Shown piece after piece: positions 2,005 to 63,890 of a stretch of 64,000 bases of DNA. Under the pieces are notes generated by a model, which was not told the DNA's origin, did no database searches, and was given only the letters and a program-made list of their open reading frames with translations. Both the position numbers and the translations under genes were made by a program. Where the stretch lies: the NCBI RefSeq assembly GCF_004010195.1, contig NC_057717.1, positions 107,547,819 through 107,611,818 on the forward strand, in the 5' to 3' direction. The DNA comes from Chiloscyllium plagiosum (lineage: Eukaryota). Position 1 is the first letter of the stretch; every line of letters starts with the position of its first letter.

Positions 2005-2815
2005 GTACAGCACAAGAGAAGACGTTTCAGCCCACAAAGCTTGCGCCAGCAAATGATGCCGTACTAAACTAAAAATCTTTTGCCTCTATGTGGTCTATAT
2101 CCTGCTACTCCTTACCTATTCATGTGTCTGTCAAGGTGCCTCTTAAATGTTGCCATTATATCTGCTTCTATCACCTCCTCTGGCAGCGCAGTCCAAGCAC
2201 TTACCATCCTCTATGTAAAAACTTGCATCTCCTTTGAACTTTCCCCATTTCCCTTAAACCTATGTCCCTTAAGTAATTGACATTTCTACCCTGGTAAAAA
2301 AATTCCAAGTATCCATTTTATCCATGCCTTGCATACTCATGTAAACATTAAAAAGTATGCAGCTGGAAAAACACAGCAGGTCAAGCAGCATCCCGAGGAG
2401 CAGGAGAGTCAATGTTTTGGGCACAAACCCTTCATCAGGAATATTTCACTGCAAACCCTTCCACTGCAAACTCTATCTTCTATGAGTAAGCCAGTTCAGT
2501 TCAGTATGCACCTTTCCAACTCATTCCATGTGACTTCACCTTCTCTGTCAGCCTGCCATGAGGAACCTGGTCAAAGGCCTTGCTAAAATCCATGTTGACA
2601 AAATCCACTGCTCTACCCTCATCAATCATCTTTGTCATCTCCTCAAAAAAAAGCACGTTCTGTGAGACACAACCTCCCCAGCACAAACTCATGCTGCCTA
2701 TAAATAAGTCCATAATTTTCAAATGGGTGTAATCCTATCCATAAGTTTCTTATCCAATAATTACCTTATCACTGATGTAACGCTCTCTGACCTGTAATTT
2801 CCCAGATTATTCCCA
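2005..2815 (-). mobile_element. CR1 LINE fragments interrupted by a Penelope-derived piece (about 2350-2440)
   Basis: ORF 2501-2722 reads FFEEMTKMIDEGRAVDFVNMDFSKAFDQVPHGRL (CR1 RT). Confidence 0.8.
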
Positions 2816-2829
2816 GAATGTATTTTGGC

Positions 2830-3530
2830 TGGAGCTGTAAAGTGGCAAGTAATGTTCATACCACATAGGTACCAGGTAATGACCATCTCCAACAAGAGAG
2901 TATCTCCCCCTTTACATTCAATGGCATACCCTCACTGAATTCCCCACAACAAACATCCTGAGGGTTCCTTAGGAAAGTTAATGGGACTTGCTATATAGAT
3001 ATCTTGGCGACAAGAGTAAGTCCAATGTTAGGAATTTTGCTGCTGATAACTTATCTCCTGATTGTCCAAAGCCTGTCCATTATCTACAAGGCGTATGTCA
3101 GACATGTGTTAGAATACTCCCCACTTGCCTGCATGAGTGCAACTCCAACAACACTCTAGAGGCTTGACACTATCCAAGACAAAACAATCTGCTTGGCACT
3201 AGATCCTCAAATACTCATTCCCTCCACCATTGACTCTACCACCTACAAGATGCACCAGAACAATTCATCAAATCTCCTTAGATAGCATCTTCCAAACCCA
3301 CAGCCACTACGATTGAACAGGACAAGGTCAGTAGATACAAGGCTACACCACCACCAGTAAGTTCCTCTCCAAGCCATCACCATTCCTTTACTGTCACTGG
3401 GTCAAAATCCTAGAACTCCTGCCTGAACAAAATTGTAGAGGTACCTACACTAAATGGACTGCAGTGATTCAAGACATTGCAGCTCACCAGCACCTTTGCA
3501 AGGCAGTTAGGGATGGGCAGTCAGTGAGCC
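2830..3530 (+). mobile_element. Decayed LINE 3' fragment (same family as 200-655)
   Basis: Shared motifs, e.g. AAGATGCAC..CAATTCA and GCAGCTCACCAGCACC...GTTAGGGATGGGCAG. Confidence 0.6.
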
Positions 3531-3572
3531 ACACCTAGGGGTCAGTTAACTCAGCAATGCAGATTGACCCCA

Positions 3573-4100
3573 TCATAGAACATAGAAGAATACAGCGCAG
3601 TACAGGCCCTTCAGCCCTCGATGTTGCGCCGATCCAAGCCCACCTAACCTACACTAGCCCACTATCCTCCATATGCCTATCCAATGCCCGCTTAAATGCC
3701 CATAATGAGGGAGAGTCCACCACTGCTACTGGTAGGGCATTCCATGAACTCATGACTCGCTGAGTTCTTTCTACCATACCAGGCAACATCCTGGTAAACC
3801 TCCTCTGCACCCGTTCCAGTGCCTCCACATCCTTCCTATAGTATGGCAACCAAAACTGCACACAATACTCCAGATGCGGCCGCACCAGAGTCGTATACAA
3901 CTGCAACATAACCTCAGTACTCCGGAACTCAATTCCTCTACCAATAAAAGCCAGTACGCCATATGCCTTCTTCACCGCACTATTTACCTGGGTGGCAACT
4001 TTCAAAGATCTGTGTACATGGACACCAAGATCCCTCTGCTCATCCACACTACCAAGTATCCGACCATTAGCCCAGTACCCCATCTTTTTGTTACTCTTAC
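3573..4100 (-). mobile_element. CR1 LINE 3' fragment, internally deleted, apparently inserted in a SINE (about 3538-3572 and 4101-4256)
   Basis: ORF 3649-4083 reads LYTTLVRPHLEYCVQFW...LERVQRRFTRMLPG (CR1 ORF2 C-terminus). Confidence 0.85.
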
Positions 4101-4279
4101 TATGGGGTGGGTTTAATTCTTGTACTGGTTAAGGTTAGTGTGAAGGACTTCCCTTCTCAACCTCTCCCCTTGCCTGAGGTGTGGTGACCCTCAGGTTAAA
4201 CTACCACCTGTCATCTCTCTCTAATGGTCTGATAGAACAATGATGACTTTACTTTAAATGATAACATATCAAGGGTCGC

Positions 4280-4600
4280 CATGGCCTAGTGGTGTTAGTC
4301 CTAGTGCTAGACTATTAATGCTGAGACCCACACAATGTTCTGGGCACCTGGGTTTAAATCCCATCATGGCAAATGGTGAAATTTGAACTCAGTAAAATTA
4401 AGTGTCCAATGATGACCATGAGCTGTTGTCAATTGTCAGGAAATCTCATTATGTTCAATATTATCCTTTAGTGGGGAAACTATCAACCTTACTTGGTCTG
4501 GCCTATATGTGATTCCAGACCCACAGTAATGAGGTTGACTCTCAGTGTGGTGTAGGGATGGGCAATTCTTGCTGCCCCAGCCTATGACACGCATATTCCG
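4280..4600 (+). mobile_element. tRNA-derived SINE
   Basis: A-box-like TGGCCTAGTGG and B-box-like GGTTTAAATCC. Homologous to 49174-49510 and 61188-61545. Confidence 0.65.
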
Positions 4601-4629
4601 GGAATCTTGGCTGAAGAATTAATGTGATC

Positions 4630-7245: not shown

Positions 7246-7764
7246 TCTCTAGTCCCAGCCGAAATTCTGCTCAAAGCGAGCATAGAAGTCGTTGAGACGA
7301 TCTGGGAGGGATGTGACATCGTCTGCTATCTAGCACTGTCTCTTTTTAGAACCTGTGATGTCATTCAGTCCTTGCCATAGTCACCGAGTATCTGTCTGGG
7401 TCTCTAGTTTGGATTGGTTCAATTTTTAGAATTAGATTATTGGTAAGAACATCAGTATCTAAGAGCCTTACAGACTTCACATTATTTATAAAGTGTGCAA
7501 TAACTGAATAAGGACCTGAATAACAGTTACATTTTCTCTGTGACATTAAGCTGATTTATTTGTATGCCTGAGCATTCAAAAGCTTTAATTGCCACCTGAA
7601 GAACCATCATACTCGTAAAAAATAATGACTTTTTTTTCTGCAGTTAAGATTTCATTGGTCTATTCCTTATCTCTGGAAAACTCCAAGCACTGTCACTAAT
7701 TTGGAATGCTTAATTGAAAATAAATGATTTGCTTAATAGATTTGTGGACAAAATAATTATTAAC

Positions 7765-8154: not shown

Positions 8155-9871
8155 TATCTATGCTATGTATATTAATGAGATCATCTACTGCTACTTTGAG
8201 TCTGAGTGACACATTTCCTTATTAAGTCACATCTCCAACAGCAGTACATATATGTGGGTGGGAGTTGGGAGGCGGGTCTTATAACACAATCCCCATATCT
8301 GAGTTCGGGTCCCACCTCAACTACGATGGTCATGGCAGATGTGTGGCAATGTGGCCAAACAGTTTGACTATCAATCAATAGATCCATCTGATTGATATGC
8401 CTATGGAAAATGTGAGTTTGCTAGTCACCCTGAACCCTGTGGTAGCTATAGCTACAGTTTCCCCATGTTAAAGGACTCCTCTTACAGGTTCTTGCCATAA
8501 GTAATTATCATCCTGGTTTTGAGGGACAAAGTAGAGATGTATTTTGATGTTAGTTGTGGTTTTTCTTTCTTTTTTTCCTCACAGAGGGTGGCAGCCCGTC
8601 ACCAAGTCATCCTTTATTTACACGTGCATAATACTTCACAGTGGTTCAGCTTAGCTTCCTCAGAGCCAGCTCTCAGAGTAACAGAAGCTCTGGCACTCCT
8701 GTTTATTTTTTTTCTCCCTGTTACCCCCACACTATCGCCTAACTGTGGTAGTACTTATTTTTTTCCCTAGCGCCCATGTGTGTGTGCAGGTGTGAGACAC
8801 AGCGAAAGACACAAGGTGCATGAATCTTTATTCAAATTTCCACCACCAGGAAGAAAGGAAACATCCGCGTGGCCAGTGACAAGCAGTGGCCTTCACATCA
8901 AAGGGCAATGCTGCGTGATAAAACAGTGAAAGGGGGGTTGTGGTATATTTTCTGTTGCTTTGCAAGTTTGTGAATTGGTTTTCCTGTTTCCTAAATTCAG
9001 AATCAAACACAAGGAAATAAAAGAAATCTTGCGTACGTATCACCTGAAACATTTTATCTATGTCTTCTGGAGATCAGTGATAACATTGCTTCCAATGGGC
9101 TTGGTTAGTTTAATTAGCCGAATGACCAGTTTACAATGCAGAGTGATGCAAACTATGTGGGTTCAGTTCCTGTACTGGTTAATCTCATCATGAAGGTCTC
9201 AAGAACAGCCCTATTGCCCCTGGGATTATGGCGACTTTATCTGTTTCCAATGGGTTCTGTTTTATAAAAACAGGGGAGTTCTTCCATGTAATTCATCGTA
9301 TTCCTTGTGGGACTGATTTCTGCTTTAATCGCATTATTACAGATTCTGAATTTGCATATTGGGGATTTAATTAAGCGATTGTTTGTTTTCCTCTGAAATG
9401 TGTAATACATCGCATCAATTGTATGACACTTTGATCTTTTACTATAAATTTTGTGTCCTATGATCCTGCATCACTAGCTACCTGAAAGCTTGTACTTCCA
9501 AATAAACCTGCTGGACTATAACCTGGTGTTATGTGATTTTTAACATGGAATAAAAAAAGTTGGAAAAATTAGCAAATTAAATTGCTGGACTCATTTATTT
9601 CTCTATACCTGAAATTTGTAATGTAAAACAGACTTTTAAACAACTCAAAATGCATATCTTGTTATGATCCCAGCTGATGTCACTACCAGATAAGTCAGAT
9701 CCCAGAATCAAGTCTGGCTTGATAGACTATTTTTAAAAGACTTAGCTAATGTGGAAAACAGTCATTAAAACATAACTACATGAGGCTGCGTAGTTTATTT
9801 AACAATAGAGCAGAAGTTTATTACACAAAATAATAGCAAACCAGGTTATCTAAATAGAGGAAACAGATAAA

Positions 9872-10313
9872 TAGATGAGGCGTTTGGATGTGCAGGAAAA
9901 TCTCTACCGAATGTGGAAGGATCCTTTGGGACCTTGGATGGATGTGAGGGAGAGGTGTGGGCGCAGGTTTTACACCCCTTGCGGTGGCAACGTTTCAGAG
10001 AATATCTCTGGGACACACACACAATCCCACTGCTCTGTGGCAAACCACTTCAACTCCCCCTCCCACTCCACCAAGGACATGTAAGTCCTGGGCCACCTCC
10101 ACCACCAAATCCAAGCCATCCAACACCTGGAGGAAAAATCCTCTGCCTTTGGACCCTCCAACCATACAGCATCAACGTCGATTTCACCAGTTTCCTCATC
10201 TCCCCTCCCCCACCTCCACATTTCTGGTGCAGGGCTTATGCCCGAAACATCAACTCACCTACTCCTCGGATACTGCCTGACCTTCTGTGCTTTTCCAGCG
10301 CCACACTTTTTGT
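9872..10313. mobile_element. Penelope-like element fragment with internal inversion
   Basis: 9872-9988 matches the - strand Penelope at about 43990-44105. The rest is a + strand 3' end (RFREYLWDTH, VANHFNSPSH) with a degenerate hammerhead at 10224-10251. Confidence 0.75.
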
Positions 10314-13784: not shown

Positions 13785-14680
13785 AGTAGAGTGGTATACC
13801 ACAAGGATCTGTGGTAAGGCCTCAACTAGTCGCTATGTTTATTAATGACTTAGGATAGCATATTTGATAGCTATACATCCAGGTTTTCTGATGGAACAAA
13901 GTTCAGTGGCATAGTAAGTGGTGTAAACGGGAGCTGAAAGTTCAGAGGAGACACCGTTAGCTTGAGTGAGTGAACAGAAGTGTGGCATATGGATTTGAAC
14001 TGTGAAATCATCCATATTGGACCCAGAAGGGATAAATCCAAACAGTGGAGGACCAAAGAGATTCAGGGATATGTGTACACAAATTACATTTCAAAAGCTA
14101 AAGGTTACAGGAAAGGAACAATCAAGTACACTAATGAAATTTTAGTTTTAATTATGCAAGGGCTAAAATATTAAAGTTGAGTTGCAACTAAACAAAACCC
14201 TGGTTAGGCTGCATTCAGTGTATAGTTTTGGGCATTATACATTAGGAAATATTGGCATTGGATGGAATGGTCTGCAGGTTTACTGGAATGTTATGAGAGT
14301 TCCAAGGGTTCTTTTTTAAGGAGAGGTTACATAAACTAGGCTTCCATTTCTTGGTGGATATAAAGTTAAAGGTGATTTGTTTTTTTTTTAAGATTTGGTT
14401 CCCCATGGGAGACTGGTTAGCAAGATTAGATTCCATGGAATACAGGGAGAACTAGCCATTTGGATACAGAACTGGCTCAAAGGTAGAAGACAGAGGGTGG
14501 CGGTGGGGGGTTATTTTTCAGACTGGAGGCCTGAGAACAGTGGAGTGCACAGGAATCGGTGCTGGGTCCACTACTTATTGTCATTTATATAAATGGTTTG
14601 GATGTGAGCATATGAGGTATAATTAGTAAGTTTGCAGATGAAATCAAAATTGGAGGTGTAATGGACAGCGAAGAAGGTTA
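13785..14680 (+). mobile_element. Decayed CR1 RT fragments (two pieces)
   Basis: ORF 14395-14592 reads VPHGRLVSKIRFHGIQGELAIWIQNWL. Related CR1 debris lies at 15400-15640 and 15950-16070. Confidence 0.7.
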
Positions 14681-15058
14681 ATTTACATTGGACAAACAGG
14701 CAGAAAACTAGCCACCTGGATACTTGAATACTAACTAGCCACAAAACGACTTGACCTTCTCTCACTAGTATCTTTACATACAGATAAGGAAGGACACCAC
14801 TTCGACTGGGACAACACATCCATCTTAGGACAAGCCAAACAGAGATTCGCACGAAAATTTCCTAGAAGCATGGCATTCCAACTAAAACTCTACCAACAAA
14901 CACATTGAGTTAGACCCCATCTACCACCCCCTGAGAAAAAAGAACAGGAAATGACATCACCACAGGAAATAACATCACCAACCCAAAGAAGCCCAAACAT
15001 ATAAATAAAAAACAGGAATCATGTACAGTGCTTCGCCTGAGGCCCACTGAAGATGTTA

Positions 15059-15277
15059 GATCAGAATGGTACTGGAAAAGTGCAGCACGTCAGGCAGCAT
15101 CTGAGGAGCGGGAAAATCGACGTTTCGGGCAAAAGCCCTTCATCAGGAAGCCCTGGTGAAGGGCTTTTGCCCAAAACGTTGATTTTCCCGCTCCTTGGAT
15201 GCTGAATGACCTGCTGTGCTTTTCCAGCACCACTCTGATCTAAACTCTGGTTTCCAGCATCTGCAGTCCTCACTTTT
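15059..15277. mobile_element. Fold-back Penelope-derived element (family A) with a hammerhead motif in each arm
   Basis: About 90-bp inverted arms centred at 15148-15151. Flanking direct repeat GCCCACTGAAGATGTTA at 15042-15058 and 15278-15294. Confidence 0.85.
15118..15147 (-). ncRNA. Minimal type-I hammerhead ribozyme motif (family A), intact core
   Basis: Minus strand reads C-CTGATGA-A-GGGC-TTTT-GCCC-GAAAC-GTC-G. Confidence 0.8.
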
Positions 15278-15649
15278 GCCCACTGAAGATGTTACCTAGT
15301 AGGGCAGACAAAACGCCTGGAAATGAACCTTCCAGCTCAGTTAGCAAACCTACATCCAGAACCTTAACCAGAGCTACAAATCTTCTCAAAACCCACTAGT
15401 AAAGAATAGTAATTGGAAAATTTGGGATTGAGGGTTGATAAATTTCCTGACCTGATGTTACTTGTAGCATACACAGCTGAGAATCAATGGATTTGATGTA
15501 TTTGGATTTTCAAAATGTGTTAGCTAAGATCTCAAACATGACGTTAGTAAATAAAATTAGGACACATTCGATTTGGGTCAAATATACTATTATGGATTGA
15601 CAATTGGTCAATAGAAAGCAGAGGGTGGGAATAATTTGATCATTCTCAG

Positions 15650-17816: not shown

Positions 17817-19918
17817 CTTTTCTCTCCCCCCCCCACTGCCCTATTTATCTCCCAGCCCCCTTCCTCCCCCTCATTCCTAATGAAGGGCTTATGCCTGAAA
17901 TGTAGACTCTCCTTGGATGCTGCCTGACTTGCTGTGCTTTTCCAGTCCCACACTTTTCAACTCCAGGGTCTAAAACATTGTCCTCAGGACCACACTGCAG
18001 AACCAGGTTGTAAACCCCACCTAGGACCTCACTCCCCAAACCCCAGGGTCCAAACCTCAGCTCCAAGCCCCCAGGATCTTACTCCAGCTGAACCCCAACC
18101 CTCATGATCCAGAGGACTACACTCTGGCAACCGGTTCTTGAGGTCACACTCTATTTTCTGAACCTGAGGAATTGAAAGAATAATGTGAAGTGAGTCACAT
18201 TTTCCAAGACAAATGGAAGACTCAGTTCTTGAGTGAAAATTGAGAATGTCACTTGTTTTGCAGTCAGAACAGTATAGTGGAAAACATGTTGCTGGTTTAA
18301 TTTTCCTCAAAAATAAAAGTTCACATGAACATTCCCTGCATTAAATAAATTCAAAATGATGTTTTTAATCCATCAGGGTGCAATCAGATGTACGTTGTCT
18401 TGATTGTTTTCTACTGGGTCCTTTCCATTTTAAAGAAATCCACTGTATAATCTTGTTTTTTGACAGTTGGTAGATCTGTACTGCTGAGTATTTCTGACAA
18501 TTTTTAGGTTAATGTTTTTCTTGCTATGAGTTCTAGAAGTAAGTTTGTCAGCATTTCAATGAAAACGGATAATTAATATAGGTTCCAACTAGATACCTGG
18601 CCTGAAGTTCTTACTTGCTTTTCTCTGTTTGTATTTAAATTGAAAATCCTTTCTTTCTAATCTTTGGGACCTTTTGTGAAAAGTGACTTAGATCATTGAG
18701 CCGTTAAACTCCAAGTGCAGCAAACTGTAATGATTGGCCAATAGTGTTTCAACATGTCTCATCTGGCTTTTAAATATTGAATACACCATATATACCACAA
18801 GCCTTCCTATTTGCTTAGTCATTAACTACTGTTAACATTGAAGAAAATGTAACTTTTCATACAGGAGAATTAACTGATAAGCTGAAATATGACCATGCGA
18901 AATACAGTTGGTTTCCTGGGAGTTTGCATTACTCCCCTCAGTGTAGTTAGATTTCAAAGATCATTGTTCTGATGTTTTGAGCTACGTGGACGTAAATTTT
19001 CCAAGATGGACTTTATTGAAATGTTTCTAATTTAGGATGGCTACCATTTGTAGTTTTCTTCCATCCCCTGAATGAATATCAACTGGAGATGATGGTATCC
19101 GTATTAATCAGTTGTATCTATTCCTGTGAAGAATTGCTTAGCTTCACTCTGGCATCAGTGCTATCATGAAGAGAGATTGTATTCCTGTCCAGCCTCACCC
19201 CTCAGGATTTTATTAACATGTGTAATACCTGGTGAAGGTAGTCACTGTAATCTGGCCAGAGATCTCAGTCACCCCGTCTGCTGTTAAGATTTAGATTAAT
19301 TTGTTGTATCAGATTTCTTACTGTCCTAAAGGTGCAGTTTCCTGTTGATGTTCAATTGCACTGATGTCAGCTTCCCTACCATATGTCATCCAAGTGACCA
19401 ATCTTCAAATGTCAGTCTGAGGTTTTACTATGGAGACATCATAGCCAGGTCCAGTCATGTTTTTCCTCATGTTCATACATTTACACTTCCAGTAACTGAT
19501 AACTGAATAGTGACTGGGAACAGATATCCTGGTTGACTTTTTCCAATTCCTAGAGCTGCACTGTTGTGCCCCTACCCTGCCTTGGTTAAGATTTGCTAGC
19601 AATCTAAATTAAAGCTCAAACATTAGCAAAGACGTAACTGAAATGACAATTGTGTTGACTGGTGGAATGTCACTCGTTCAAGATTATTTTGTGATCTCTG
19701 CATGATCATAGTATTACTGGGAGTTTGAGAACACAGCGTTCAGAATATTATCCAAAAAGGCATGTAAATTCCAGGTTATTCAGAATTAATGTTTGGAGCC
19801 AGTCAACTTGGCTCTGATCTGTTATTGTGTTGAGGTACAACTTGAGCTGTAGCTGGTATTTTGACAGTATATTCAATATTTTGTCAGTGTTCCCAGGTAG
19901 GGATCAGATTGAAATTAG

Positions 19919-20080
19919 CGCTGAAAGTGTGTTGCTGGAAAAGCGCAGCAGGTTTCCTGAAGAAGGGCTTATGCCTGAAACGTCGATTCTCCTTTCCCTG
20001 GATGCTGCCTGACCTGCTGCGCTTTTCCAGCAACACATTTTCAGCTCTGATCTCCAGCATCTGCAGACCTCACTTTCTCC
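19919..20080 (+). mobile_element. Short fold-back Penelope-derived element (family A) with 15-bp TSD
   Basis: TCAGATTGAAATTAG at 19904-19918 and 20081-20095. Inverted arms GCTGAAA.TGTGTTGCTGGAAAAGCGCAGCAGGT / ACCTGCTGCGCTTTTCCAGCAACACA.TTTCAGC. Confidence 0.85.
19957..19984 (+). ncRNA. Minimal type-I hammerhead ribozyme motif (family A), intact core
   Basis: CTGAAGA-A-GGGC-TTAT-GCCT-GAAAC-GTC. Confidence 0.75.
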
Positions 20081-25190: not shown

Positions 25191-25227
25191 AATCCTTGGA
25201 GGGAATCCTGGGGATTGGAGGGCTGGA

Positions 25228-25823: not shown

Positions 25824-26010
25824 GTGATTTGGAGGAGCTGGTGTTGGACTGGGGTGGGTAATGTTAAAAATCACAACACCACGTTATAGTCCAACAGGTT
25901 TATTTGGAAGTGCTAGCTTTGAAAGCACTGTTTCTTTATCAGGTCGAAAACTAGTGCTTCCAAATAAACCTGTTGGACTATAACGTGGTGTTATGTGATT
26001 TTTAACATTT
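25824..26010. mobile_element. Fold-back Penelope-derived element (family B)
   Basis: Inverted arms at about 25861-25918 and 25947-26009 (GTTATAGTCCAACAGGTTTATTTGGAAG / CTTCCAAATAAACCTGTTGGACTATAAC). Confidence 0.75.
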
Positions 26011-28099: not shown

Positions 28100-30620
28100 G
28101 AAACAGTCTGGCCTCCTGCTTCCCCTCCCAGAGGGAGATTTCAGTCTGCCGAACCAAACTGGTTATTTGTTATTACATGGTGGAGAGAGCCTAGTTGGAA
28201 TGAATGCTTGTTTACTTGTTCAGTTTGGTCTTGGACCTGGTATGCAGGACAGCCCCAGCTTAGCTGTCCAATCCACTAAAATAATTGAACATGTCTTGTA
28301 ATGTGTGATCTCATTCCTTCATCTAGATGCTGATGTCAGCCTTTGGATCTGAATTGAATAAGAAATCATTACATTTACTAATTAAATCTGAATTGGACAA
28401 ATATGTTTGCACAGTGTGAGCAATCTGTCGTAAATGGCTAATGGGTAGGTGCTTAAACTGCACTATCGCCACCAGTGAGATTATGTCCACTTGAAGTACT
28501 CGCTGATGGTAAAGCATTGGGCCTATTACTCAGTGTTGATGAGCTCTGCATTGTTGTCGTCTACCAGCCCCGAGACCTGTTTTCTACGGTTTCATTGCCA
28601 GACAATGCTAATACCACATTTTCCATATCGAGAAATGATTCCACAGGTAACACTGACTCAGTAACTTTTCCCTGATGGTTGTGGTTTACATGTAAGTGCA
28701 AATCCTGTTGTTAGGAAATGTAATCAGCACTGTTAGTCCAGTTTGAACTGTTCCCTGCTTGAATCTATAAGGATGCACCTTTTAGCAGTTGTCAGTGGCG
28801 ATGACCGTTAAACTGGTAACATTGGCCCTTGCTTTCTCCTGGGAAGGTATAAAAGTGAGGGAGGGTGCAGTGTGAGACATTAGGGGTTGATTTCATTACC
28901 AATTGCTCTTGCCTTTGACAGGCTAAGTTTTCTTTTGTGTAGATGGGGCTCAAAGTTTGCTTGGGTTGTGTTGGTCAGTGTGCCAGGGGCTCAAATACTC
29001 TTCCAGTCTTGATTAGAGACCTTCACACTGCCGCCCTCTCCTTATTCAGTAGGTACAGATTGAAACTGAAATAGAAACTTGCAGCTCAGTCACATGGTTA
29101 TTCATTTTTAGCTACTGCTGAAACAAGACCACAGCAAAGACACTCAGTCAGAATATTTTCTTCATCCTACTGGGAGGATTGGCATTTCCCTGTATTGGGA
29201 TTTTGTTTTCCTTTTCAGTGCTTTATTAAAATAAGTTGTTCATCTCTCTAAAATCTGTTCTTTTAAATCTTTTTATTAGCAAATTTTGTCAGGTTTTGGG
29301 AAGCAAGAAATGATGTTCCTTGTGGAAGTGGGTAGTTCTTAAAGGATCAGTTTATTCTTCAGACGACTTGTATATGTCTTAGCCTTGATCCTGCCTCTAC
29401 TGACCTCTGTCAGAAGAGTGGTGGGGCTTTAGTGGGAGGAGACAATGACCTATATTTCTGTCACTGATTATTCTGTTGGAAAGTATATTTGGATGTGAAG
29501 TGAGGACAGGACTGAGCTAGACATCTGCTCCTGTGTTCTTGAGGAACCCACTGAAAGTCCAGAGACCAGGCTGTAAGCCACTTCAGCACGGTATTATCAA
29601 CAGACGTAGAATTGTACCCCAGAGAGGAGTGGGGAAAACTACTGGGGCAAAGTAGGAAACCATCCGCCAAATGTTTTGGCAGTTACCGGTAAACATAGTG
29701 TGAATGTTTGAAAACTGCTGGGGCTGTGTAATGCCCAAAAGGTTGTTTTAAATCTTGAGGCACTTTAGAAATACTTTGGCACACATGACGGTCTTGTTTT
29801 CAGCTACAGCCTTGGCCTTGAGAGGAACAGCTTTCTAATGCAGCAATGTTGTATCTGCACTGGGCTAATGCCCAAGTTTTGCATCATGAATGACAGTGAG
29901 GCAGACAGCACAACTCATGGGCAGTATGATTTGAAGCCTGCAAATAGGTAGACATCCAAAAGCTGATGTCTGGGTTGCCTTGAACCTCCACATGTTTTTA
30001 CTGAAAGGCTCTGCATTGAAGACAGTGAAAGGTCATGAAGTTGCTCAACTTACCTGTGATGTGTGCAGGATAGGTTGGGACTGGTGTGTTGGTGTCCAGG
30101 TGAATTTTTAAAAGCATGTTAAATCCCAATTATTGTCAACAAAGTCTCTGGCAGTGAAAACAGAGCGGAATTTATTTTTTCCCAAATGTTAATGTTGGAG
30201 ATTCTGAAAATTTAACTTTAACATTTTTCTGTCTTTAGTTTACTCTCAACTCCACCTTTCTTTCCTTCACTTTACTTATTTTCTGTATAAACTTTAAAAT
30301 GTTGTACAAATGTTCAAGTTTATCTTCCTGGTTTAGACTCTTAGAGCTAAATTAGATACCTCCTGAAACTGGATTTGGGGTTGGAGTGAGTGGCCCAGAC
30401 CTATTCATTGTAAACCACGCAATAGACTTCAGATTCAACCTGTGTCAATAATTCATCTTCGTCCAGAGGATGTCTAAATAGTCCCAAACCCTCCAGTACT
30501 TTTTCCAAGTAGTCCTTAAACCGAAATTTGTTCCCAGCACTCCTCGTAGCTGCCATACAACACTCCTACACCTTGCAAGGTTTGTAGCTCAGGTTGAGGT
30601 TTAGGGCGTAGGTTTGATAT

Positions 30621-30660
30621 CCAGACGTTTCATTACCTGGCTAGGTAACATCATCAGTGG
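30621..30660 (-). ncRNA. Minimal type-I hammerhead ribozyme motif (family C), intact core
   Basis: Minus strand reads CCA-CTGATGA-T-GTTACC-TAGCCA-GGTAAT-GAAAC-GTC-TGG; stem I is CCA/TGG. Confidence 0.8.
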
Positions 30661-30933
30661 CGACCTCCAAGTGAAGCGAAGCTGTTGTCTCCTGCTTTCT
30701 ATTTGTTTGTCCTGGATGGGGTTCCTGGGGTTTGTGGTGATGTCATTTCCTGTTCATTTTCTGAGGGGTTGATAGATGGTATCTAGACCTAATATGTTTG
30801 TTAATGGCGTTGTGGTTGGAGTGCCAGGCCTCTCAGAATTCTCTGGCATAAGTCTAGAACCGCAGGAACCCCATCCAGGACAAACAAACAAATAGAAAGC
30901 AGGAGACAACAGCTTTGCTTCACTTGGAGGTCG

Positions 30934-30973
30934 CTACTGATGATGTTACCTAGCCAGGTAATGAAACGTCTGG
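30934..30973 (+). ncRNA. Minimal type-I hammerhead ribozyme motif (family C), intact core
   Basis: CTA-CTGATGA-T-GTTACC-TAGCCA-GGTAAT-GAAAC-GTC-TGG. Confidence 0.8.
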
Positions 30974-31327
30974 ATATCAAATCTACAGCTCAGCGAGCAA
31001 ACCTACACCCTATTCCTACACCTTTATCAGACTGCAAATGCAACAGACAATATTTTTAAAATTCCTGCGATAAGGTCGTTAATGAGCTCGTCAATTAGTG
31101 ATTTACAAATGGCAGACACATTGCGAACTCTGCAGCTTCTCCCCATCCCTAAGTTGAGAGATTCGCTGTTATCGCACCCTCCTTTACATTCCTCCCACCC
31201 CCCTGCCCTGCTCTGCCCCGGGGGGTGGGAAGGGAGCTGGTTTGTGAATATAAAATTCAGCTGTGTGGGGACTGTAGTTGGATGCGGAAGGTAATGCGGA
31301 GAATTTTCCTACAATGAGTGTCTAATC

Positions 31328-36030: not shown

Positions 36031-36646
36031 ACCACCAACAAAATCTACCATCTTCACAATCTAAAAGGCATAATCGTAGGAAGCTGATTTGAGAGACCAC
36101 CACCTACGGGTTCCCCTCAAAGCTGCACACCATCTTGATTTAGAGCTAACGTTGCTCCTTCACTGTCTATGGGTCGAAATCCTGTAAATCCTTCCCTAAC
36201 ATCTCTCGCTGTACACTCCACGGATTTTAGTAGTTCAAGAAGGCAAGTCACCAGCACCTTCTCCAGGGCAGTTAGGGATGGACAGTAAATGTTAGCCCAG
36301 CCAGCAAATTTCAAATCCTGTGAATTAATAGCTTAGCATGTTGGATTTTGTCCATTCTCTCTTTCACATTGTGTGCAGTAGTATAATTGTAACCTTGTGA
36401 GCTTAGCTGAGCACTGGAGCCGTGGTAACAACAATAAACAGTATAGAATCATAGCATTTGACAACACAGGAGGCGGCCTTCTGCTCCCAAAAGAGCTACC
36501 CATTCTCCAGCCCTTTCTCTGTAGCCCCAAAAAATCATCACTTTCAAATATGTATGATTTGGAGATGCCGGTGTTGGACTGGGGTGTACAAAGTTAAAAA
36601 TCACACAACACCAGGTTATAGTCCAACAGGTTTAATTGGAAGCACA

Positions 36647-36676
36647 CTAGCTTTCGGAGCGACGCTCCTTCATCAG
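36647..36676 (-). ncRNA. Minimal type-I hammerhead motif (family B) at the end of a Penelope-derived insertion (about 36553-36676)
   Basis: Minus strand reads CTGATGA-A-GGAGC-GTC-GCTCC-GAAA-GCTA-G, with palindromic AGCT in place of helix III. Stem I is truncated at the junction. Confidence 0.7.
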
Positions 36677-40464: not shown

Positions 40465-40797
40465 CACTCTGCCGAGGACATGGAGATCCTGGGCCTCCTT
40501 CACCGCCGCTCCCTCACCACCAGACGCCTGGAGGAAGAACACCTCATCTTCCGCCTCGGAACATTTGAACCCCAGGGCATCAATGTGGACTTCAATAGTT
40601 TCCTCATTTNNNNNNNNNNNNNNNNNNNAGCTTATCTCTCCACGCTTCAGGCTCTCTGCCTTTATTCCTGATGAAGGGCTTTTGCCCAAAATGTCAACTT
40701 TGCTGCTCCTCGGATGCTGCCTGAACTGCTGTGCTCTTCCAGTACCACTAATCCAAAAGCTGGTTTCCAGCATCTGCAGTTATTGTTTTTACCTAGT
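40465..40797 (+). mobile_element. Penelope-like element 3' end (family A)
   Basis: ORF 40480 RRLEEEHLIFRLGTFEPQGINVDF (Penelope ORF C-terminus). Degenerate hammerhead at about 40668-40695. Confidence 0.8.
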
Positions 40798-42179: not shown

Positions 42180-43401
42180 GTAATGGTTTATGGGCCCTGA
42201 TTGTTTCTTGCTCATGTTTGGAAACTTGTTTTTTTTCCTTTCAGGCTGTTGTTGCTGTTTGTTGTCAGTGCAGTTCAGGCCCCAGAGTGCGTACAGTCGC
42301 GGTTAGACAGACTTGTAGTAAGTGGTGGAGCGTTCACAGCATTATTTGCGTGTTTCTGCTTTCACAATGCAGAAGACTGACTTAGAACTTCAATTATAGA
42401 TTAATAGAGTCATACAGCATGGAAACAGGCCTTTCAGCCTACCTCATCCATGCCGATCATGTTTTCTAAACTGAGCAAGTCCCATTTGCCTGCATTTGGC
42501 TCATATCCCTCTAAAACCTTTCTATTCATGTACCTGTCCAAATGTCTTTTAAATGTTGTAATTGTACTCTCCTCTACCACTTCCTCTGGCAACTCGTTCC
42601 ATACATGCACCACCCTCTGTGTGAAAATGTTACCACATGGGTCCCTTTTAAATCTTTCCCCTCTTGCCTTAAACCAATTCCCTCCTAGTTTTGGACTCTT
42701 TTACTCTGGAGAAAAGACCATGATTATTCACTGTATCCATGCTCTTCATGATTTTAATATACCTTTATAAAGTCCCAGCCTCTCCTAATAACTCAAACTT
42801 TGCGGTCTCAGTGATATCCTTGTAAATCTTTTTCTGCACCCTTTCCAGTTTTATAACATCCTATAGCAGGAGTGTACACAAACAGATTGGGCCTGAAATG
42901 ATATGGCTCTCAGATTTTAATCAAAAAGAGTGAAACTAAATATAACTTTAATTAACAGGTGTGTGCAGAAATCTAGTGACTGTATATTTTATCTATTTTA
43001 AGTTCAAGGAGAAACTTGAAACTGGAAAGGTCTCATTGACTAGCTTGTATTTGACAGTGAAAGTGACTCTCCTGTTTGACCCTTATCAATACAATTGCTA
43101 GAAGTGTGTGACGATCAATCTGTTCTTAATTTCAAAGTTCCAAGTGGTTGGGGAGAGATTGTCCTGTAAAGATCAATTATTCCTTTGGCTGATCCTGGTT
43201 TCCTTTCAGCCATGTTAACAGTGGAAGAGCACAGTTTAATTCTAAGTTTTACTTAGTAAAAATATGAGGTGTGGCACTAACTTTATCGACGATTGCAATC
43301 CTCTCATTCTGCTGATAACTGATATTGAAGCTGCAGAGAGTGTCTTCATATTGATGTTGCTGGCATGTTGCTGTTGCCGCTATCTTGTGTTTCATGTTGA
43401 A

Positions 43402-44273
43402 AAGTGTGGCACTGGAAATGCACAGCAAGTTAGGCAGCATCCAAAGAGCAGGAGAATCGATATTTCAGGCATTAGCCCTTCATCAGGAATATGGAGAGGG
43501 GTCAAGGGGGCTAAGAGATAAATAGGAGGGTGGGGTGGGGTGGGGGGAACACAGATGGGAAGGTGATAGGTAGATGCAGGTGGAGGGTGATAGTGATAAG
43601 TCAAAAGGGTGGCTGGAGTGGATCGGTGGGAAGGAAAATGGATTGGTAGGACAAGTCAAAAGGGCGGTACCGAGTAGGAGGGTTGGATGTTGGGTGAGGT
43701 GGGAGGAGGGAAGGTTAAGAAACTAGTGAAGTCAGTGTTGATGCTGTGTGGTTGAAGAGTCCCAAGGTGGTTAAAAAAAAAAGGCGTCGTTCTTCCAGTT
43801 GTTGAGTGGCTTGGATTTGGCAGTGGAGGCGGCCCAGGATTTGCATGTCCTTGTGGGGGGTTGAACTGATCGGCCACAGGGCAGTGGAGGTGTTTGGTGT
43901 GTGTCCCAGAGATGTGCCCTGAATCGTTCTGCAAGTTAGCGTCCTGTCTTCCCAATGTAGAGGAGACCACATCGAGAGCAATGGACATAGTAGATGAGGT
44001 GGGTGGATGGGCGGGAAAATCTCTGCTGGATGTGAAGAGATCCTTTGGGGCCTTGGACGGAATGAGATGGGAGGTGTGGGCACAGGTTTTACTACTTGCA
44101 GCGGCAAGGGAAGGTGCTGGATGTGGATTTTGAGTCGGTGGAGGGGTGTGGACCTAGCAAGGGAGCCATGGAAGGAATGGTCTCTGCAGAATGCAGATAA
44201 GCACGTGGAAGGAAATATACCTCTGGCGGTGGGGTCTGATTATAGATGGCAGAAATGGCGGAGGATAATACAC
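43402..44273 (-). mobile_element. Penelope-like element (family A), GIY-YIG endonuclease region plus 3' repeat
   Basis: Minus strand near 43940-44000 translates as LIYYVHCSRCGLLYIGKTG. Degenerate hammerhead at about 43455-43487. Confidence 0.85.
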
Positions 44274-44289
44274 TGTATTCTATCTTGTA

Positions 44290-44442
44290 GGAGAAAGTGA
44301 GGACCGCAGATGGTGGAGCTCAGAATCAGGAGCATCTGGAGCATCAGGAATCCTGATGAAGGGCTTATGCCCGAAACATTGATTCTCCTGTTCCTCGAAT
44401 GCTGCTTGACCTGCTGTGCTTTTCCAGCACCATGCATTCGAT
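44290..44442 (+). mobile_element. Short rearranged Penelope-derived element with 16-bp TSD and hammerhead motif
   Basis: TGTATTCTATCTTGTA at 44274-44289 and 44443-44458. GAATC-CTGATGA-A-GGGC-TTAT-GCCC-GAAAC-ATT-GATTC at 44348-44385. Confidence 0.8.
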
Positions 44443-49883: not shown

Positions 49884-49947
49884 TCCATCCTACCCTGGCA
49901 ATGCTTTTCTACAACTTCTACTATCGGAGAGAAAGTACAGAAGTCTG

Positions 49948-49995
<48 letters not shown>

Positions 49996-50206: not shown

Positions 50207-50814
50207 CAGATACCTTTTAAATGTTGTAATTGTACCAGCTTTCCTCTGGCAGCTCATTCTGTACATGCACCACAGTCTGCATGAAAAGATTGCCCCTTAA
50301 TGCCCCTTTTTAAAATCTTTCCCCCTCACCTTAAATCTATGCCCTCTAGTTTTGGACTCTCCTCACTGGGGGGAGAAAAGACCTTGTTGATTCACCCTAT
50401 GCCCCTCATGATTTTATAAACCTCTAAGGTCACCCCTCAACCTCTAACGCTCCAGGGAAAATAGCCCCAGCCTGTTCAGCCTCTTCCTATAGCTCAAACC
50501 CTCCAACCCCGGCAACATCCTTGCAAAGTTTTTCTGAACCCTCTGAAGTTTCACAACGCCTTTCCTTAAGCAGAGACACAAAAATTGGTTAGGCCACTTC
50601 TAGACTATGGTGCTCAATGTCCTGTATTTAGTCAATTGTCAAATGCAATCTGAATTCTTCCTCCTGGATATCTCTGCCAAGCTGCTCTTACCAACCTGTA
50701 AAGAGTAAAGTCACCCATGATTAACATACTGCTTTGTTTCCATGCCCTTATGTCCTGATTTATTCTCTTTCCTATGGTATAGCTACAGTTAGGAGGCTTG
50801 TATACTACTACTAC

Positions 50815-51408
50815 TAGGTAAAAACAATGACTGCAGATGCTAGAAACCAGATTTTGGATTAGTGGTACTGGAAGAGCACAGCAGTTCAGGCAGCATCCGA
50901 TGAGCAGCAAAATCGACATTTTGGGCAAAAGCCCTTCATCAGGAATAAAGGCAGAGAGCCTGAAGTGTGGAGAGATAAGCTAGAGGAGGGTGGGGGTGGG
51001 GAGAAAGTAGCATGGAGTACAATAGGTGAGTGGNNNNNNNNNNNNNNNNNNNNNNNNNNNNNNNNNNNNNNNNNNNNNNNNNNNNNNNNNNNNNNNNNNN
51101 NNNNNNNNNNNNNNNNNNNNNNNNNNNNNNNNNNNNNNNNNNNNNNNNNNNNNNNNNNNNNNNNNNNNNNNNNNNNNNNNNNNNNNNNNNNNNNNNNNNN
51201 NNNNNNCCCTAAAGCGCTCTGCTCGGAGGCGTCCAGTCTCCCCAATGTAGAGGAGACCGCATCGGGAGCAACGGATGTAATAAATGATATTAGTGGATGT
51301 GCAGGTAAAACTTTGGATGTGGAAGGCTCCTTTAGGGCCTTGGATGGAGGTGAGGGAGGAGGTGTGGGCGCAGGTTTTATAGTTCCTGCGGTGGCAGGGG
51401 AAGGTGCC
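50815..51408 (-). mobile_element. Penelope-like element (family A) spanning an N gap, inserted in a CR1 endonuclease fragment
   Basis: Homologous to 43402-44273. Flanks encode VVYKPPN..IMGDF. CTACTACTA occurs on both sides. Confidence 0.8.
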
Positions 51409-56769: not shown

Positions 56770-57129
56770 TAAAGGTAAAAACCACTCAACACCAGGTTAT
56801 AGTCCAACAAGTTTATTTGCAAGCACTAGCTTTTGGACCACTGCTCCTTCAGGTGATTGTGGAGAATAAGATTGTAAGACACAGAATTTATAGCAAAAGT
56901 TTAAGTACGATGTAACTGAAACGATATATTGAAAAAGACCCGGATTGTTTAAGTGTCTCATCTCTTAGAATGAACATGTTGGTTTCAGTTCAGATGGTTT
57001 CACAATCACCTGCTGAAGGCGCAGCGTTCTGAAAGCTAGTGCTTCCAATTAAACCTGTTGGACTATAACCTGGTGTTGTGTGATTTTTAACTTTGTCCAC
57101 CCCAGTCCAACACCGGCGTTTCCAAATCT
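56770..57129. mobile_element. Fold-back Penelope-derived element (family B) with degenerate hammerheads
   Basis: Arms at about 56771-56862 and 56999-57094. CAC-CTGCTGA-AGGCGCAGCGTTCT-GAAAGCTA-GTG at 57007-57041. Confidence 0.8.
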
Positions 57130-57649
57130 TAAATGTAACAGTTAGTGTTAGCACAAACTGTTGGGTATTCTGGTGTTTGTGATTTAAATTTATAGGATTT
57201 TAAAATTGTTTTCTATTTGCTGCAATGTTTGGCAGAGGGAGAATTCCCAGAATGTGGCAATGTTTAACGTTTTTGTTTGCTAGTAGCCAGGATTATCAAT
57301 CCACAAACAAAAGTCACCAATATTAGAGAATTAGAGGGAAGATGGCAACTCTATTTAAGAACACTACAACGTGAAAGCTCCCTACGGTATTTGAAAGAAG
57401 GTTTTGTTCAAATCTCACATCAGAAGCTTGCTATCGCATTCAATCTGACATTCAAGTGCAGTGCCAAAGGCGTTCTGCACTGTTGGATGTGTCAGCTTTA
57501 GGGCAGGGTGATGAGCCTTTCAGGTTGGTTATTAAAAAAAAAAATCCTGTGGTGGTATTTAAAGAGCAAAGATTTCATTCTGTGACCTTGTCAATTTTAG
57601 TATGTCAACTGACGGATTAAAATCTCTTGGGGGGGGGGGGGGGGGGGGC

Positions 57650-57845
57650 AAGTGAGGACTGTAGATGCTGGAGAGTCAGTTGAAAAATGTGGTGCTGGAA
57701 AAGCACAGCAGTTCATGCAGCATCCAAGGAGCAGGAGAGTCGCCGCTATGGGCATAAGTCCTTCAGCCCTTTCTGATGAAGGCCTTTCTGCCCGAAACGT
57801 CCTTGGATGCTGCCTGATCTGTTGCACTTCTCCAGTGCCACACAG
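57650..57845. mobile_element. Fold-back Penelope-derived element (family A) with hammerhead core at 57773-57801
   Basis: CTGATGA-A-GGC-CTTTCT-GCC-C-GAAAC-GTC. Inverted arms TGTGGTGCTGGAAAAG / CTTCTCCAGTGCCACA. Confidence 0.75.
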
Positions 57846-61187: not shown

Positions 61188-61545
61188 TGGGGAGGTGATG
61201 GTCTCATTGTATTATCACTGGACTGTTAATCCAGAGACCCAGGTAATGTTGTGGCGACCCAGGTTCAAATTCTGCTGTGGTAAATGGTGGAATTTGAATT
61301 CAATAAAAACAAAATCTGAGATTGAGTCTAATGGTCATAATGAAACCATTACTGATTATTGGGAAAACCCATCTGGTTCACTAAAGTCCATCAGGGAAGG
61401 AAACTGCCATCTTTACTTGGTCTGGCCAACATGTGTCTCCAGACCCACAGCAATGTGGTTGACTCAATTGCCCTCTGGGCAATGAGGGAAGGGTGGTAAA
61501 TGCTGGTCTAGCCAGCAATGCCCTCATTCCATGCATGAGTTTTTT
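61188..61545 (+). mobile_element. tRNA-derived SINE ending about 60 bp upstream of exon 3
   Basis: Homologous to the 4280 and 49174 copies; B-box-like GGTTCAAATTC. Confidence 0.7.
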
Positions 61546-61607
61546 TAAAAAGTTTTTTTCCCTGGGTTGTTACTCTACTTGTTCTCTCATGGTCTTTATC
61601 CCTACAG

Positions 61608-61681
61608 GAGCTGCACTGACATCATCTGCTGCCTCATCTTTTTTGCAGCCACCATAGCATATGTCATTGTGGGGATAGTGG
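61608..61681 (+). CDS. slc44a2: SLC44A2 coding exon 3 (RSCTDIICCLIFFAATIAYVIVGIVA; first TM helix)
   Basis: CCTACAG acceptor and GTAAGT donor. 74 nt, phase 2-1. RxCTDxxCC motif followed by a hydrophobic segment. Confidence 0.95.
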
Positions 61682-63483
61682 GTAAGTAAATACAAACTGA
61701 TGGTGTACATATAAAAATCACCTATCCTACTAATGCTGCTAAAGCAGCCCAGCTGCGGACTGAGAATCCCGGGTTTTCAAAAACATGATATAATCACCAA
61801 ATTCCAAAGAGGGACAATGAGAAAGTCACTTAATTTTACCCTTGGTGGGTTGGACTCCTCTTCAACTGGATTCGTTTTTTTTATTTATAACCTCCACGCT
61901 CTTTGTGTGAAACCATCTGTCTTTGTTCTATTTGTGAATGAATGTGTGGGGGTTTGGATTTATAGGGAGTATAATTTAAGTTTCCCTTTAAGTAATTACC
62001 CATCAATTTTGCCACTTGTTTATTATAACCAAAATTATTCTTTAACAAGTTTTATTGTTTGTTGCTGAAAACTGATGTGAATTTCTTAAATTGGAGATGG
62101 TAGTCAAAGTCAGGCAGTGTCCATGGAGATTAAATTGGTCATTTATACTTTTGTGACAAACTGGATTAGTAATGTATGAAATTGTATTCCCTATAAATCC
62201 AAAGGTGGAGTATTGTGACTTGATTTCAGATTACTGTTCCTATCAGCAACATGGCACAACATAACAGGGCTGAGGCTGTTCGCTCACTGAACAATCAGGC
62301 AGTGTAGCAGTCCTCACTATCTGCCAGCGTAGACATTTCTCATTTGCTTGGATGTGACTTGACTAATCAAAATGTTGCAAATTAATGTTTTTGATACAAA
62401 TGAGAGAGTACAATATCAGCCTGTGCAAATGCTATGTGGACTCCTCTAGGCAGTAATGTGGGCCTTATGAAACAAAGTGTGAGAGTTTCCATTTCCAGAA
62501 TGTGGCCATTAACTACAAAACCAGAATGTCTTGTCCTTGAAGGGTGTGTAGTGATCCATTGCCTTGAAATGTGGCAGCGTGTGGTCAAAGTGTTCCCACG
62601 TTGCTGTTTAAGAGTGCTGAAGAAGAACAGCTTGCACCTCAGTGGCTTTCACGCATCTGCTGTTGTTTTGGAGGGGCTGAACTTCCTTCTCATTGCCTGT
62701 ACTGGCTGCCTTGACATTTCAGGAAGTGTATTTCCGCTATGCACTCGAAACAAACTGCATCGATGCATAGAATTCTGTTACAGGAGGAAATCATTGTGGT
62801 TACAGGCACCAATTGTTCTTAAATAAAAACAGAACGTCTGAGTCCATTGAGGCATACTCAATGAAAACAGACCCTTTTGTCCAATTCGTCCGTGCTGACC
62901 AGATATTCTGGTGAAATTCAGCAGTTCTGGCAACATCTGTGGAGAGAGAAACCAAATTAATGTTCCAATTCACCTGACTGCTTTCTAAACCCATTCTAAT
63001 CCTACTTCTCTGCTTGTTCCATTGAATATGGTTTTTTCCAAGCATATTTGTTAAACAACATTTTAACTGTATGGTACAAATGCTTCCTGCCATTTTTCAG
63101 GATATTGCACAATTGTTTCAGTATCTGGGGAGTCACAAATAGTGCTGAATATTGAACAATTATCAGCGAACATCCCCACTTCTGACCTTATGATGGAGGG
63201 AAGGTCATTGAACCATAAAGATGGTTGGATCTAGGACATTTAACTCCTGCAGTGATATCTTGGAGCTTGATAATTGAGAATATAGCTCAGGGTGTTGGGT
63301 TAGTTTGGTAGATAAAGAATTTGCCTGGGCCCAGAGACTTTTGGCCTGTTTATTATGCTGATCTTTGCTTTTCATGGGTTGAGATGGTTATATTTTCCTT
63401 TTAAGTAACAAAAGTAAAATGAATGCATTGACTATTTTCTGTGGTACTGCTGACTCTTGCCATTAATGATGGTCTATTTTTAG

Positions 63484-63568
63484 CATGGATCCATGGAGAC
63501 CCTCGCAAAGTGATCTATCCGACTGACAGTCGTGGCGAGTTCTGTGGTCAGGTTGGAGGCAGGAATGA
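63484..63568 (+). CDS. slc44a2: SLC44A2 coding exon 4 ([29 protein letters not shown])
   Basis: TTTTTAG acceptor and GTAAGT donor. 85 nt. [20 protein letters not shown] matches human CTL2 as recalled, favouring SLC44A2 over SLC44A4/A5. The gene continues beyond the window. Confidence 0.93.
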
Positions 63569-63749
63569 GTAAGTTCTGTTCTCTTCCTTGGATGCCAAAG
63601 TTAGAGACTTATCCAAAAGTGGGTTGGAATTTCAGAATAAAGCCTCAGACATGGTGGTTAAAATCTCGAAGACCACTGCCATAAAAAAAAATTACAAGTC
63701 ACCATTAACACAGTAACTTGGCCTGGGAGTGAAATTACTATGATACACA

Positions 63750-63890
63750 AGGTTAAAGCTTCATCTGGAGGCTCACTGATGATGTTACCTAGTCTGGTGA
63801 TGAAATGTCTGAAAACTAACCTTCCAGCTCAACGAGCAAACCTCCATCTAGAACCTCAACCTGAGCTACAAATCTTCTCAAAATTTGCTT
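63750..63890 (+). mobile_element. Penelope-derived 3' repeat (family C) with hammerhead motif at 63773-63812
   Basis: TCA-CTGATGA-T-GTTACC-TAGTCT-GGTGAT-GAAAT-GTC-TGA. Confidence 0.75.

Follow-up and report, generated by a model that had tools for sequence, protein, structure and literature searches.

Cervera & de la Pena 2014 (PMC4209133), in the parts drawn on here, reported minimal type-I hammerhead ribozymes in the pseudo-long terminal repeats (pLTRs) of Penelope-like elements (PLEs) from fish (Xena, Poseidon and Neptune), coelacanth, Xenopus and reptiles. The motif described there keeps both catalytic boxes and an extra unpaired nucleotide, is without helix III, is palindromic at positions 15.2-16.2 and carries H (non-G) at position 17, with a helix I of typically 4-5 bp (2 bp in D. 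virilis) and a usual G10.1-C11.1 pair. In the 64-kb stretch of contig NC_057717.1 analysed here (64,000 nt, hereafter the window, to which all counts refer), recurrent motifs of this kind very probably belong to non-coding modules at the 3' terminus of PLEs from an orectolobiform-type shark, with at least three families represented, each of which has its own minimal type-I hammerhead motif. These families are called A, B and C below.

Further traits of PLEs provide the frame for the comparison. A passage in Craig 2021 lists a high degree of 5' truncation, an inverted truncated copy lying alongside and a tail of 30-40 nt that is often present at one end only, and part of Frangieh 2024 (PMC11167929) ascribes the tail to reverse transcription that starts at two neighbouring internal sites. 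With regard to cartilaginous fish, the consulted part of the preprint by Li et al. 2026 describes retrozymes together with Neptune and Poseidon PLEs in one Chondrichthyes species, and an excerpt of a published listing includes Penelope among the repeats of the whale shark. A literature search, outside which lay Repbase, Dfam and the supplements of Cervera 2014 and Li 2026, returned no paper specifically on shark PLE hammerheads.

The reading is carried by the observed anatomy of the motif, its distribution over separate repeat families, the connection of families A and C with remains of open reading frames (ORFs) of the reverse transcriptase (RT)/GIY-YIG type, and insertion products in the style of PLEs.

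Minimal hammerhead motifs and their probable carrier elements

A strict descriptor was modelled on the definition of the minimal hammerhead given in passages of PMC4209133, in which CTGANGA is followed in turn by zero or one extra nucleotide, a stem II with 4 bp or more, GAAA, a palindrome of 2 nt, T and H. The hammerhead search called for in the preliminary description of this DNA yielded six sites with this descriptor, whereas 300 dinucleotide-preserving shuffles averaged 0.02 and 5/300 of them held any match; the extra unpaired nucleotide before stem II was required by 6/6 sites. A looser pattern, CTGANGA-N(4-30)-GAAAC, matched seven times where 1.13 matches were expected, a number reached in 0/100 shuffles, and its match at 28076 was discarded as not hammerhead-like. 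Neither a U3-A8 core variant nor longer helix III palindromes had matches in the window.

Including remnants, the motif occurs in 22 copies of three unrelated families defined by self-BLAST of the window and by alignments: 12 copies of family A (counted as copies spanning the motif position), six of B and four of C. It was recovered within a few bases at all of the 18 places at which a recurring hammerhead had previously been named. Sites of family A matched only A in the self-BLAST, those of B only B and those of C only C, indicating that beyond the core nothing can be aligned between the families. Since copies inside one repeat family are not independent of each other, the three families are the meaningful independent units.

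The CUGANGA and GAAA boxes stand in type-I order, and both are intact in 5/12 copies of family A, 1/6 of B and 3/4 of C. Taken singly in the 12 aligned copies of family A, CTGANGA is intact in 8/12 and GAAA in 7/12, while 3/12 pass the full descriptor. The unpaired nucleotide that separates position 9 from position 10.1 is an A in families A and B and a U in C. Helix III and loop 3 are missing; the palindrome at 15.2-16.2 (CG in A and C, GC in B) is directly followed by U16.1 and H17, giving ACGTC in families A and C and AGCTA in family B, so that H17 is C in A, A in B and C in C. Helix II consists of GGGC/GCCC in A, GGAGC/GCTCC in B and GTTACC/GGTAAT in C, and these three different paired sequences agree with the earlier claim that stem II is family-specific yet stays paired around the core. 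The closing pair G10.1-C11.1 is present in the majority of family A and in family B, and three family A copies have acquired a G·U at 10.1/11.1 via CpG decay. The distance from the motif to the 3' end of the insertion is ~75-130 nt in all three families.

The connection with PLEs is supported by remains of coding sequence that were detected only by frame reading and a motif regular expression. When 249 stop-to-stop ORFs from the window, each 65 aa or longer, were scanned with Pfam, there was no GIY-YIG match, and the domains recovered were RVT_1, APE endonuclease, zf-RVT and GDSL. In family A, the GIY-YIG motifs at 43945-43992(-) and 51235-51282(-) lie upstream of the hammerhead and share its strand, and homologous ORF remains are present at 9872-10216(+). 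The piece belonging to the second motif (query P0001) is 90% identical to an uncharacterised protein of Chiloscyllium punctatum and has further matches in Mobula and Hypanus. In the matching proteins, a C-terminal RT part is followed by GIY-YIG, which is the architecture of PLEs according to portions of Craig 2021 and PMC4209133. Relatives of family A also contain a CX5CXXC motif ahead of the endonuclease. Based on a passage of Craig 2021 that links a motif of this type to Neptune elements, family A may tentatively be placed in the Neptune clade and not in Poseidon.

Family C contains endonuclease remains at 14684-14905(+), ~130 nt before the hammerhead once a nested family A unit is subtracted, and a 57-aa piece of them shows 83-85% identity to Stegostoma tigrinum proteins bearing RVT_1 and GIY-YIG. 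In P0022 of Stegostoma tigrinum, the gene model appears to run in its last 30 residues past the endonuclease into a peptide resembling a translated family C-type hammerhead and tail. This peptide-level impression suggests that the endonuclease and the hammerhead may be contiguous in that species as well. The ORF remains of the RT/GIY-YIG type thus bear out, for families A and C, the initial assignment to Penelope-related elements. The accompanying guess that these are shark versions fits the best database matches, which are carpet-shark proteins.

Two RTs of the neighbourhood were tried as PLE partners and rejected. The one at 31387-33242 beside family C is L1-like by comparison with solved structures, and the one at 36677-38400 upstream of the family B copy 36550-36676 belongs to a CR1-like long interspersed nuclear element (LINE).

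Insertion products, decay and alternative readings

Eight head-to-head inverted units are present in the window, five of family A, two of B and one of C, and four of the family A units possess target-site duplications (TSDs) of 11-17 nt. Copies of family A end either ~90 nt past the start of the motif or 40-45 nt further, and the 3' extension of 40-45 nt is present at one end only in 5/5 family A units. Family B has two alternative 3' ends ~35 nt apart, each found in 3/6 copies, and the family C arm at 30937 is without the last ~30 nt that other family C copies have. The window therefore displays 5' truncation, inverted neighbour copies and one-end-only extension as traits of PLE insertion. 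Tandem Repeats Finder (TRF) detected only 18-nt and 2-nt repeats in the window and no head-to-tail array of families A, B or C, and no direct neighbours of the same family lie closer than 3.7 kb. Without tandem arrays, nothing in the window is a retrozyme in the strict sense.

As an observation in its own right, the 5' ends of short family A copies and of inverted arms cluster 1-6 nt from C3 of the hammerhead in 4/5 units and in one solo copy. Cleavage does not explain this clustering, because it takes place on the 3' side of the motif. If the clustering proved to be genome-wide, the hammerhead might mark the end of the PLE RNA template or the point at which the RT switches strands to build the inverted arm, a proposal to which we assign little credence. 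If true, the hammerhead would structurally shape PLE insertion products, besides or instead of cleaving itself.

A possible mode of action can be outlined from published work on other PLEs. Active master copies in a partial tandem arrangement would give transcripts bearing two motifs, which may pair via the ACGU or AGCU palindrome and thereby form helix III in trans. A weak cut would then be expected after GUC in families A and C or after CUA in family B, and such cutting may serve to trim the RNA of the element. Window copies, by contrast, are dead remains that decay neutrally and fastest at the two CpGs of the core.

The copies themselves are neutral fossils and inactive now. The core includes two CpGs, C11.1-G12 and C15.2-G16.2, which is why cores die early: in family A, 18/48 cells at core CpG sites are mismatched, and G12, a conserved position of the catalytic core, has changed to A in 5/12 copies. 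Given that the window copies are neutral, the functional case rests on the comparison between families and not on these copies.

Read data from the same organism describe the families beyond the window. In a DNA-type run, the repeat bins stood 4-5 orders above neighbouring unique bins in word depth, a purely qualitative sign that the copy number is very high. At 36645, other genomic copies of family B give a loose-end consensus, TAGCTTTCGGAGCGCTGCTCCTTCATCAGG (+ strand), that complements an intact motif, and reads from these other copies extend upstream of the hammerhead. In a single-cell polyA RNA run, reads lay on both strands of the repeats, and 23,726 of the 23,810 placed reads fitted only partly, indicating that they come from other genomic copies. 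No pile-up of molecule starts or ends was seen at the cut site in this run, whose library cannot show 5'-OH ends, and 0 reads of a second RNA run were placed.

Several findings count against the reading as PLE hammerheads or against a strong ribozyme. The pair at 10.1/11.1 is G·U in 3/3 readable copies of family C, and helix I, judged by eye, is as short as 2 bp in family A and 3 bp in the other two families (the value for B relying on the upstream consensus from reads), which is at or below the published range. Monomers fold no more stably than shuffles (z -0.85 to +0.63), and in the minimum free energy structures of A and C a portion of the core is base-paired to the ACGUC stretch. The Rfam hammerhead models (types I, II, III, HH9 and HH10) had no match over the whole window or on stretches of ~110 nt around intact copies, whether the gathering score was applied or E up to 10 was allowed; a non-match is expected from a motif without helix III. 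The preliminary description had set beforehand that the core should be better kept than its flank across genome-wide copies, and the family A copies of the window show no such difference: 30/180 cells are mismatched in the core versus 90/636 in the 53-nt proximal tail (p=0.41), and 12/132 versus 80/600 when CpG sites are left aside (p=0.24). In vitro cleavage by the published minimal hammerheads of PLEs is poor according to part of PMC4209133, and a section of Frangieh 2024 (PMC11167929) states that catalytic mutants of the one reconstituted PLE inserted normally. Moreover, neither a full-length element nor a direct pLTR pair or tandem array lies within the window, and family B has no link to a PLE ORF there, so that the Penelope assignment is left without this support for one family of the three.

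Some of these points would also suit a motif that is kept in PLE masters for a structural or protein-recognition role, or that persists as a parasite of the element, with self-cleavage playing no part in transposition. We consider this rather unlikely. The very short helix I and the G·U of family C favour it, as does an arm end 1-3 nt or less from C3 in 4/5 inverted units of family A. In the same section of PMC11167929, the mutants leave in vitro insertion unchanged and no RNA-seq read ends at the cut site, while Craig 2021 remarks in one passage that PLE clades without hammerheads proliferate well and that hammerheads 'may simply parasitize PLEs'. However, what the three otherwise unrelated families have kept in common is exactly the catalytic boxes together with the extra nucleotide, the palindrome and the non-G at position 17, none of which a mere protein-binding hairpin would require, and the hammerheads of the PLE PAc and of fungal PLEs do cleave, as reported in parts of PMC4209133 and PMC11167929.

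The short units devoid of an ORF, notably those of family B, could alternatively be non-autonomous hammerhead retroelements, such as non-LTR retrozymes or similar, mobilised in trans by PLEs; this appears improbable. In its favour, family B lacks an ORF link in the window and has copy 36550-36676, which starts at the edge of the hammerhead within a LINE; many family A units measure just 140-220 bp and have TSDs, and part of Li et al. 2026 derives the retrozymes of the Chondrichthyes species from PLE pLTRs. Against this stand the absence from the TRF output of any head-to-tail array of the three families in the window, the continuity of the long A and C copies with endonuclease ORF remains, and the reads showing that other family B copies run upstream of the hammerhead.

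That the matches are chance look-alikes in the tails of LINEs or short interspersed nuclear elements, or microRNA-like genes, is hardly credible even though LINE RTs adjoin some copies and two inverted pairs have sub-threshold Rfam microRNA matches (mir-302, 39.3 bits with a gathering score of 55; mir-722, 29.7 with 81), because matches to the strict descriptor are almost absent from shuffles, the neighbouring LINEs are separate elements (L1-like at 31387-33242, CR1-like at 36677-38400) and the hairpins are head-to-head repeat arms with TSDs.

Individual copies and other features of the window

Under the preferred reading of PLE 3' modules with minimal hammerheads, the individual copies (Table 1) differ widely in preservation. 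The earlier calls of intact and decayed family A motifs stand in part: the sites named were located, the motif at 43459-43486(-) had been called decayed and passes the descriptor, and the one at 57773(+), called intact, has a mismatch in stem II and a deletion after GTC. At 43459-43486(-), the CpG has decayed on both strands, turning ACGT into ATAT, which is still palindromic. The calls for family B (36648-36676(-) intact, 56824 and 57010 decayed) and for family C (two intact, one altered at 63776 and one decayed at 15283) agree with the present results. New in family A are the left arm at 57740-57764(-) and the hammerhead-less unit 53100-53240, and in family B the pair 25826-26009 and the fragment 9484-9547. 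Copy 36550..36676 of family B begins at the 5' edge of its hammerhead, inside the RT of the CR1-like LINE. The family A unit 15059-15277 is nested in the family C copy 14645-15391, and the first 12 nt of the hammerhead in that copy fall inside the TSD of the family A unit.

Table 1. Positions of hammerhead motifs and their carrier repeats in the window; (.) denotes units with arms on both strands, and "descriptor" marks sites matched by the strict descriptor.
Position	Strand	Family	Feature	Details
2362..2444	(-)	A	short copy	decayed hammerhead 2413-2440 (G12 to A, CATT)
9872..10310	(+)	A	5'-truncated copy	endonuclease ORF remains 9872-10216, decayed hammerhead 10224-10251, short tail
15059..15277	(.)	A	head-to-head unit	(-) arm with short 3' end, (+) arm with long 3' end
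15042-15058 / 15278-15294		A	TSD of unit 15059..15277	14-17 nt
15119..15146	(-)	A	fully intact hammerhead, CTGATGAAGGGCTTTTGCCCGAAACGTC	descriptor
15153-15180	(+)	A	decayed hammerhead of unit 15059..15277	
17826..17963	(+)	A	copy	hammerhead 17876-17903 decayed (CTAATGA); gap 17213-17816 just upstream
19919..20080	(+)	A	unit with inverted partial tail arm in front	15-nt TSD 19904-19918 / 20081-20095
19957-19984	(+)	A	hammerhead of unit 19919..20080	descriptor; intact core with N7=A; G·U at 10.1/11.1
40629..40797	(+)	A	copy with long 3' end	hammerhead 40668-40695 decayed (G12 to A); gap 40610-40628 upstream
43390..44273	(-)	A	long 5'-truncated PLE copy	GIY-YIG ORF remains, C-rich stretch, hammerhead, short tail
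43459-43486	(-)	A	hammerhead	descriptor
44290..44442	(+)	A	unit with inverted distal-tail arm at left	16-nt TSD 44274-44289 / 44443-44458
44353-44380	(+)	A	hammerhead of unit 44290..44442	both boxes intact, palindrome broken to CATT
50813..51408	(-)	A	5'-truncated copy	decayed hammerhead 50915-50942; gap 51034-51206 upstream of hammerhead
51208-51408	(-)	A	GIY-YIG ORF piece of copy 50813..51408	query P0001
53100..53240	(.)	A	inverted tail pair, no hammerhead	11-nt TSD 53089-53099 / 53241-53251
57650..57843	(.)	A	head-to-head unit	poly-G run adjoins
~57740-57764	(-)	A	left arm of unit 57650..57843	decayed hammerhead
57773-57801	(+)	A	right arm of unit 57650..57843	intact boxes, stem II mismatch, deletion after GTC
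15147-15152, 19954-19957, 44340-44353, 57769-57773, 2440-2446		A	places of 5'-end clustering	exception: unit 53100-53240
9484..9547	(+)	B	tail fragment	5' box unrecognisable
25826..26009	(.)	B	head-to-head pair	decayed hammerhead ~25914-25942(-); right arm starts inside motif, 25946
36550..36676	(-)	B	copy	only intact B hammerhead, 36648-36676, CTGATGAAGGAGCGTCGCTCCGAAAGCTA
36648-36676	(-)	B	hammerhead	descriptor
56771..57134	(.)	B	inverted pair	decayed hammerheads ~56827-56853(-), 57010-57038(+)
14645..15391	(+)	C	5'-truncated PLE copy	GIY-YIG remains 14684-14905, decayed hammerhead 15283-15320, tail
30608..31010	(.)	C	head-to-head pair, arms 94-97% alike	both hammerheads intact
30624-30657	(-)	C	hammerhead of pair 30608..31010	descriptor
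30937-30970	(+)	C	hammerhead of pair 30608..31010	descriptor
63758..63883	(+)	C	copy	hammerhead 63776-63809: boxes intact, palindrome broken (ATGT for ACGT)

All three N runs of the window (17213-17816, 40610-40628 and 51034-51206) lie at most ~100 nt upstream of family A copies, beside a C-rich low-complexity stretch. It appears that the family A element breaks the assembly; part of Craig 2021 reports that such structures do so, and the positions of the gaps fit this report. One target sequence was found three times around the long (-) copy and the unit next to it, with a 9-nt part at 43380-43388 before the (-) copy and the full 16 nt at 44274-44289 and 44443-44458, which suggests either one complex insertion event over 43380-44458 or repeated use of one target.

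The sub-threshold Rfam microRNA matches fall at 25875-25992 and 15113-15185 and include, besides mir-302 and mir-722, mir-2005 with 35.5 bits (gathering score 61.4). Since the microRNA-like arms are PLE inverted pairs, such pairs are a likely source of false microRNA calls.

Other repeats were also noted in the window. Inverted repeats at 5786-7418 and 49880-54783, with arms of up to 358 nt that are 87-95% complementary and ~44-49 kb apart, contain RVT_1-positive ORF pieces and are two copies of one LINE in opposite orientation. A GDSL-lipase-like ORF at 24599-25185(-) matches PF13472 (E 1e-08), and the repeat tail beside it shows very high RNA and DNA read depth with sharp loose ends at 24598 and 24672. 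ORF and tail together probably represent an ORF1-type esterase of a LINE with a highly repeated LINE tail and not a host gene. Another abundant repeat family with six copies (including 11509-11594, 40927-41012 and 42404-42489) has long minus-strand ORFs, for example 11754-12257, that gave no Pfam matches.

Comparison with known systems

The phenomenon itself has been known since 2014, and the families of the window extend the known association between PLEs and minimal hammerheads to carpet-shark genomes, leaving the current view of PLE biology unchanged. They provide three natural intact test sequences with different helices II, family C among them with its unusual G·U beside the core, and their core CpGs show why such motifs vanish quickly in methylated vertebrate genomes. 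For annotation, it is relevant that the Rfam models overlook the entire class of minimal hammerheads, and that the head-to-head pairs mimic microRNA hairpins and adjoin assembly gaps.

The closest counterparts are the minimal hammerheads of metazoan PLEs, with which the window families share, as far as the consulted passages go, the core anatomy, the presence of many families per genome in mostly solo or truncated copies, and pairs on opposite strands 100-700 bp apart. They differ from the published examples in their elasmobranch host, in their own helix II sequences, in the G·U of family C and in a helix I of 2-3 bp.

Poseidon PAc of Anolis carolinensis, as described in part of PMC11167929, resembles the window elements in a hammerhead located ~110-120 nt before the point at which reverse transcription begins and in copies that end ~100 nt past the motif, and its two adjacent start sites would explain the optional tail of 30-40 nt. 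In PAc the start of the ORF overlaps the hammerhead. In contrast to PAc, the CX5CXXC motif in the shark relatives of family A, read with the passage of Craig 2021, would point to Neptune.

Animal non-LTR retrozymes (Cervera & de la Pena 2020), in the part of Li et al. 2026 used here, are likewise built around type-I hammerheads with a palindromic helix III and are kin to PLE pLTRs or descend from them; unlike the window families, they form head-to-tail tandem arrays. Finally, the Athena/Terminon elements of bdelloid rotifers are PLEs that also bear a minimal hammerhead close to the 3' end and leave dead fragments in head-to-head orientation, but they are without an endonuclease and carry telomere-complement repeats, whereas the elements of the window are of the endonuclease-bearing type and have TSDs.

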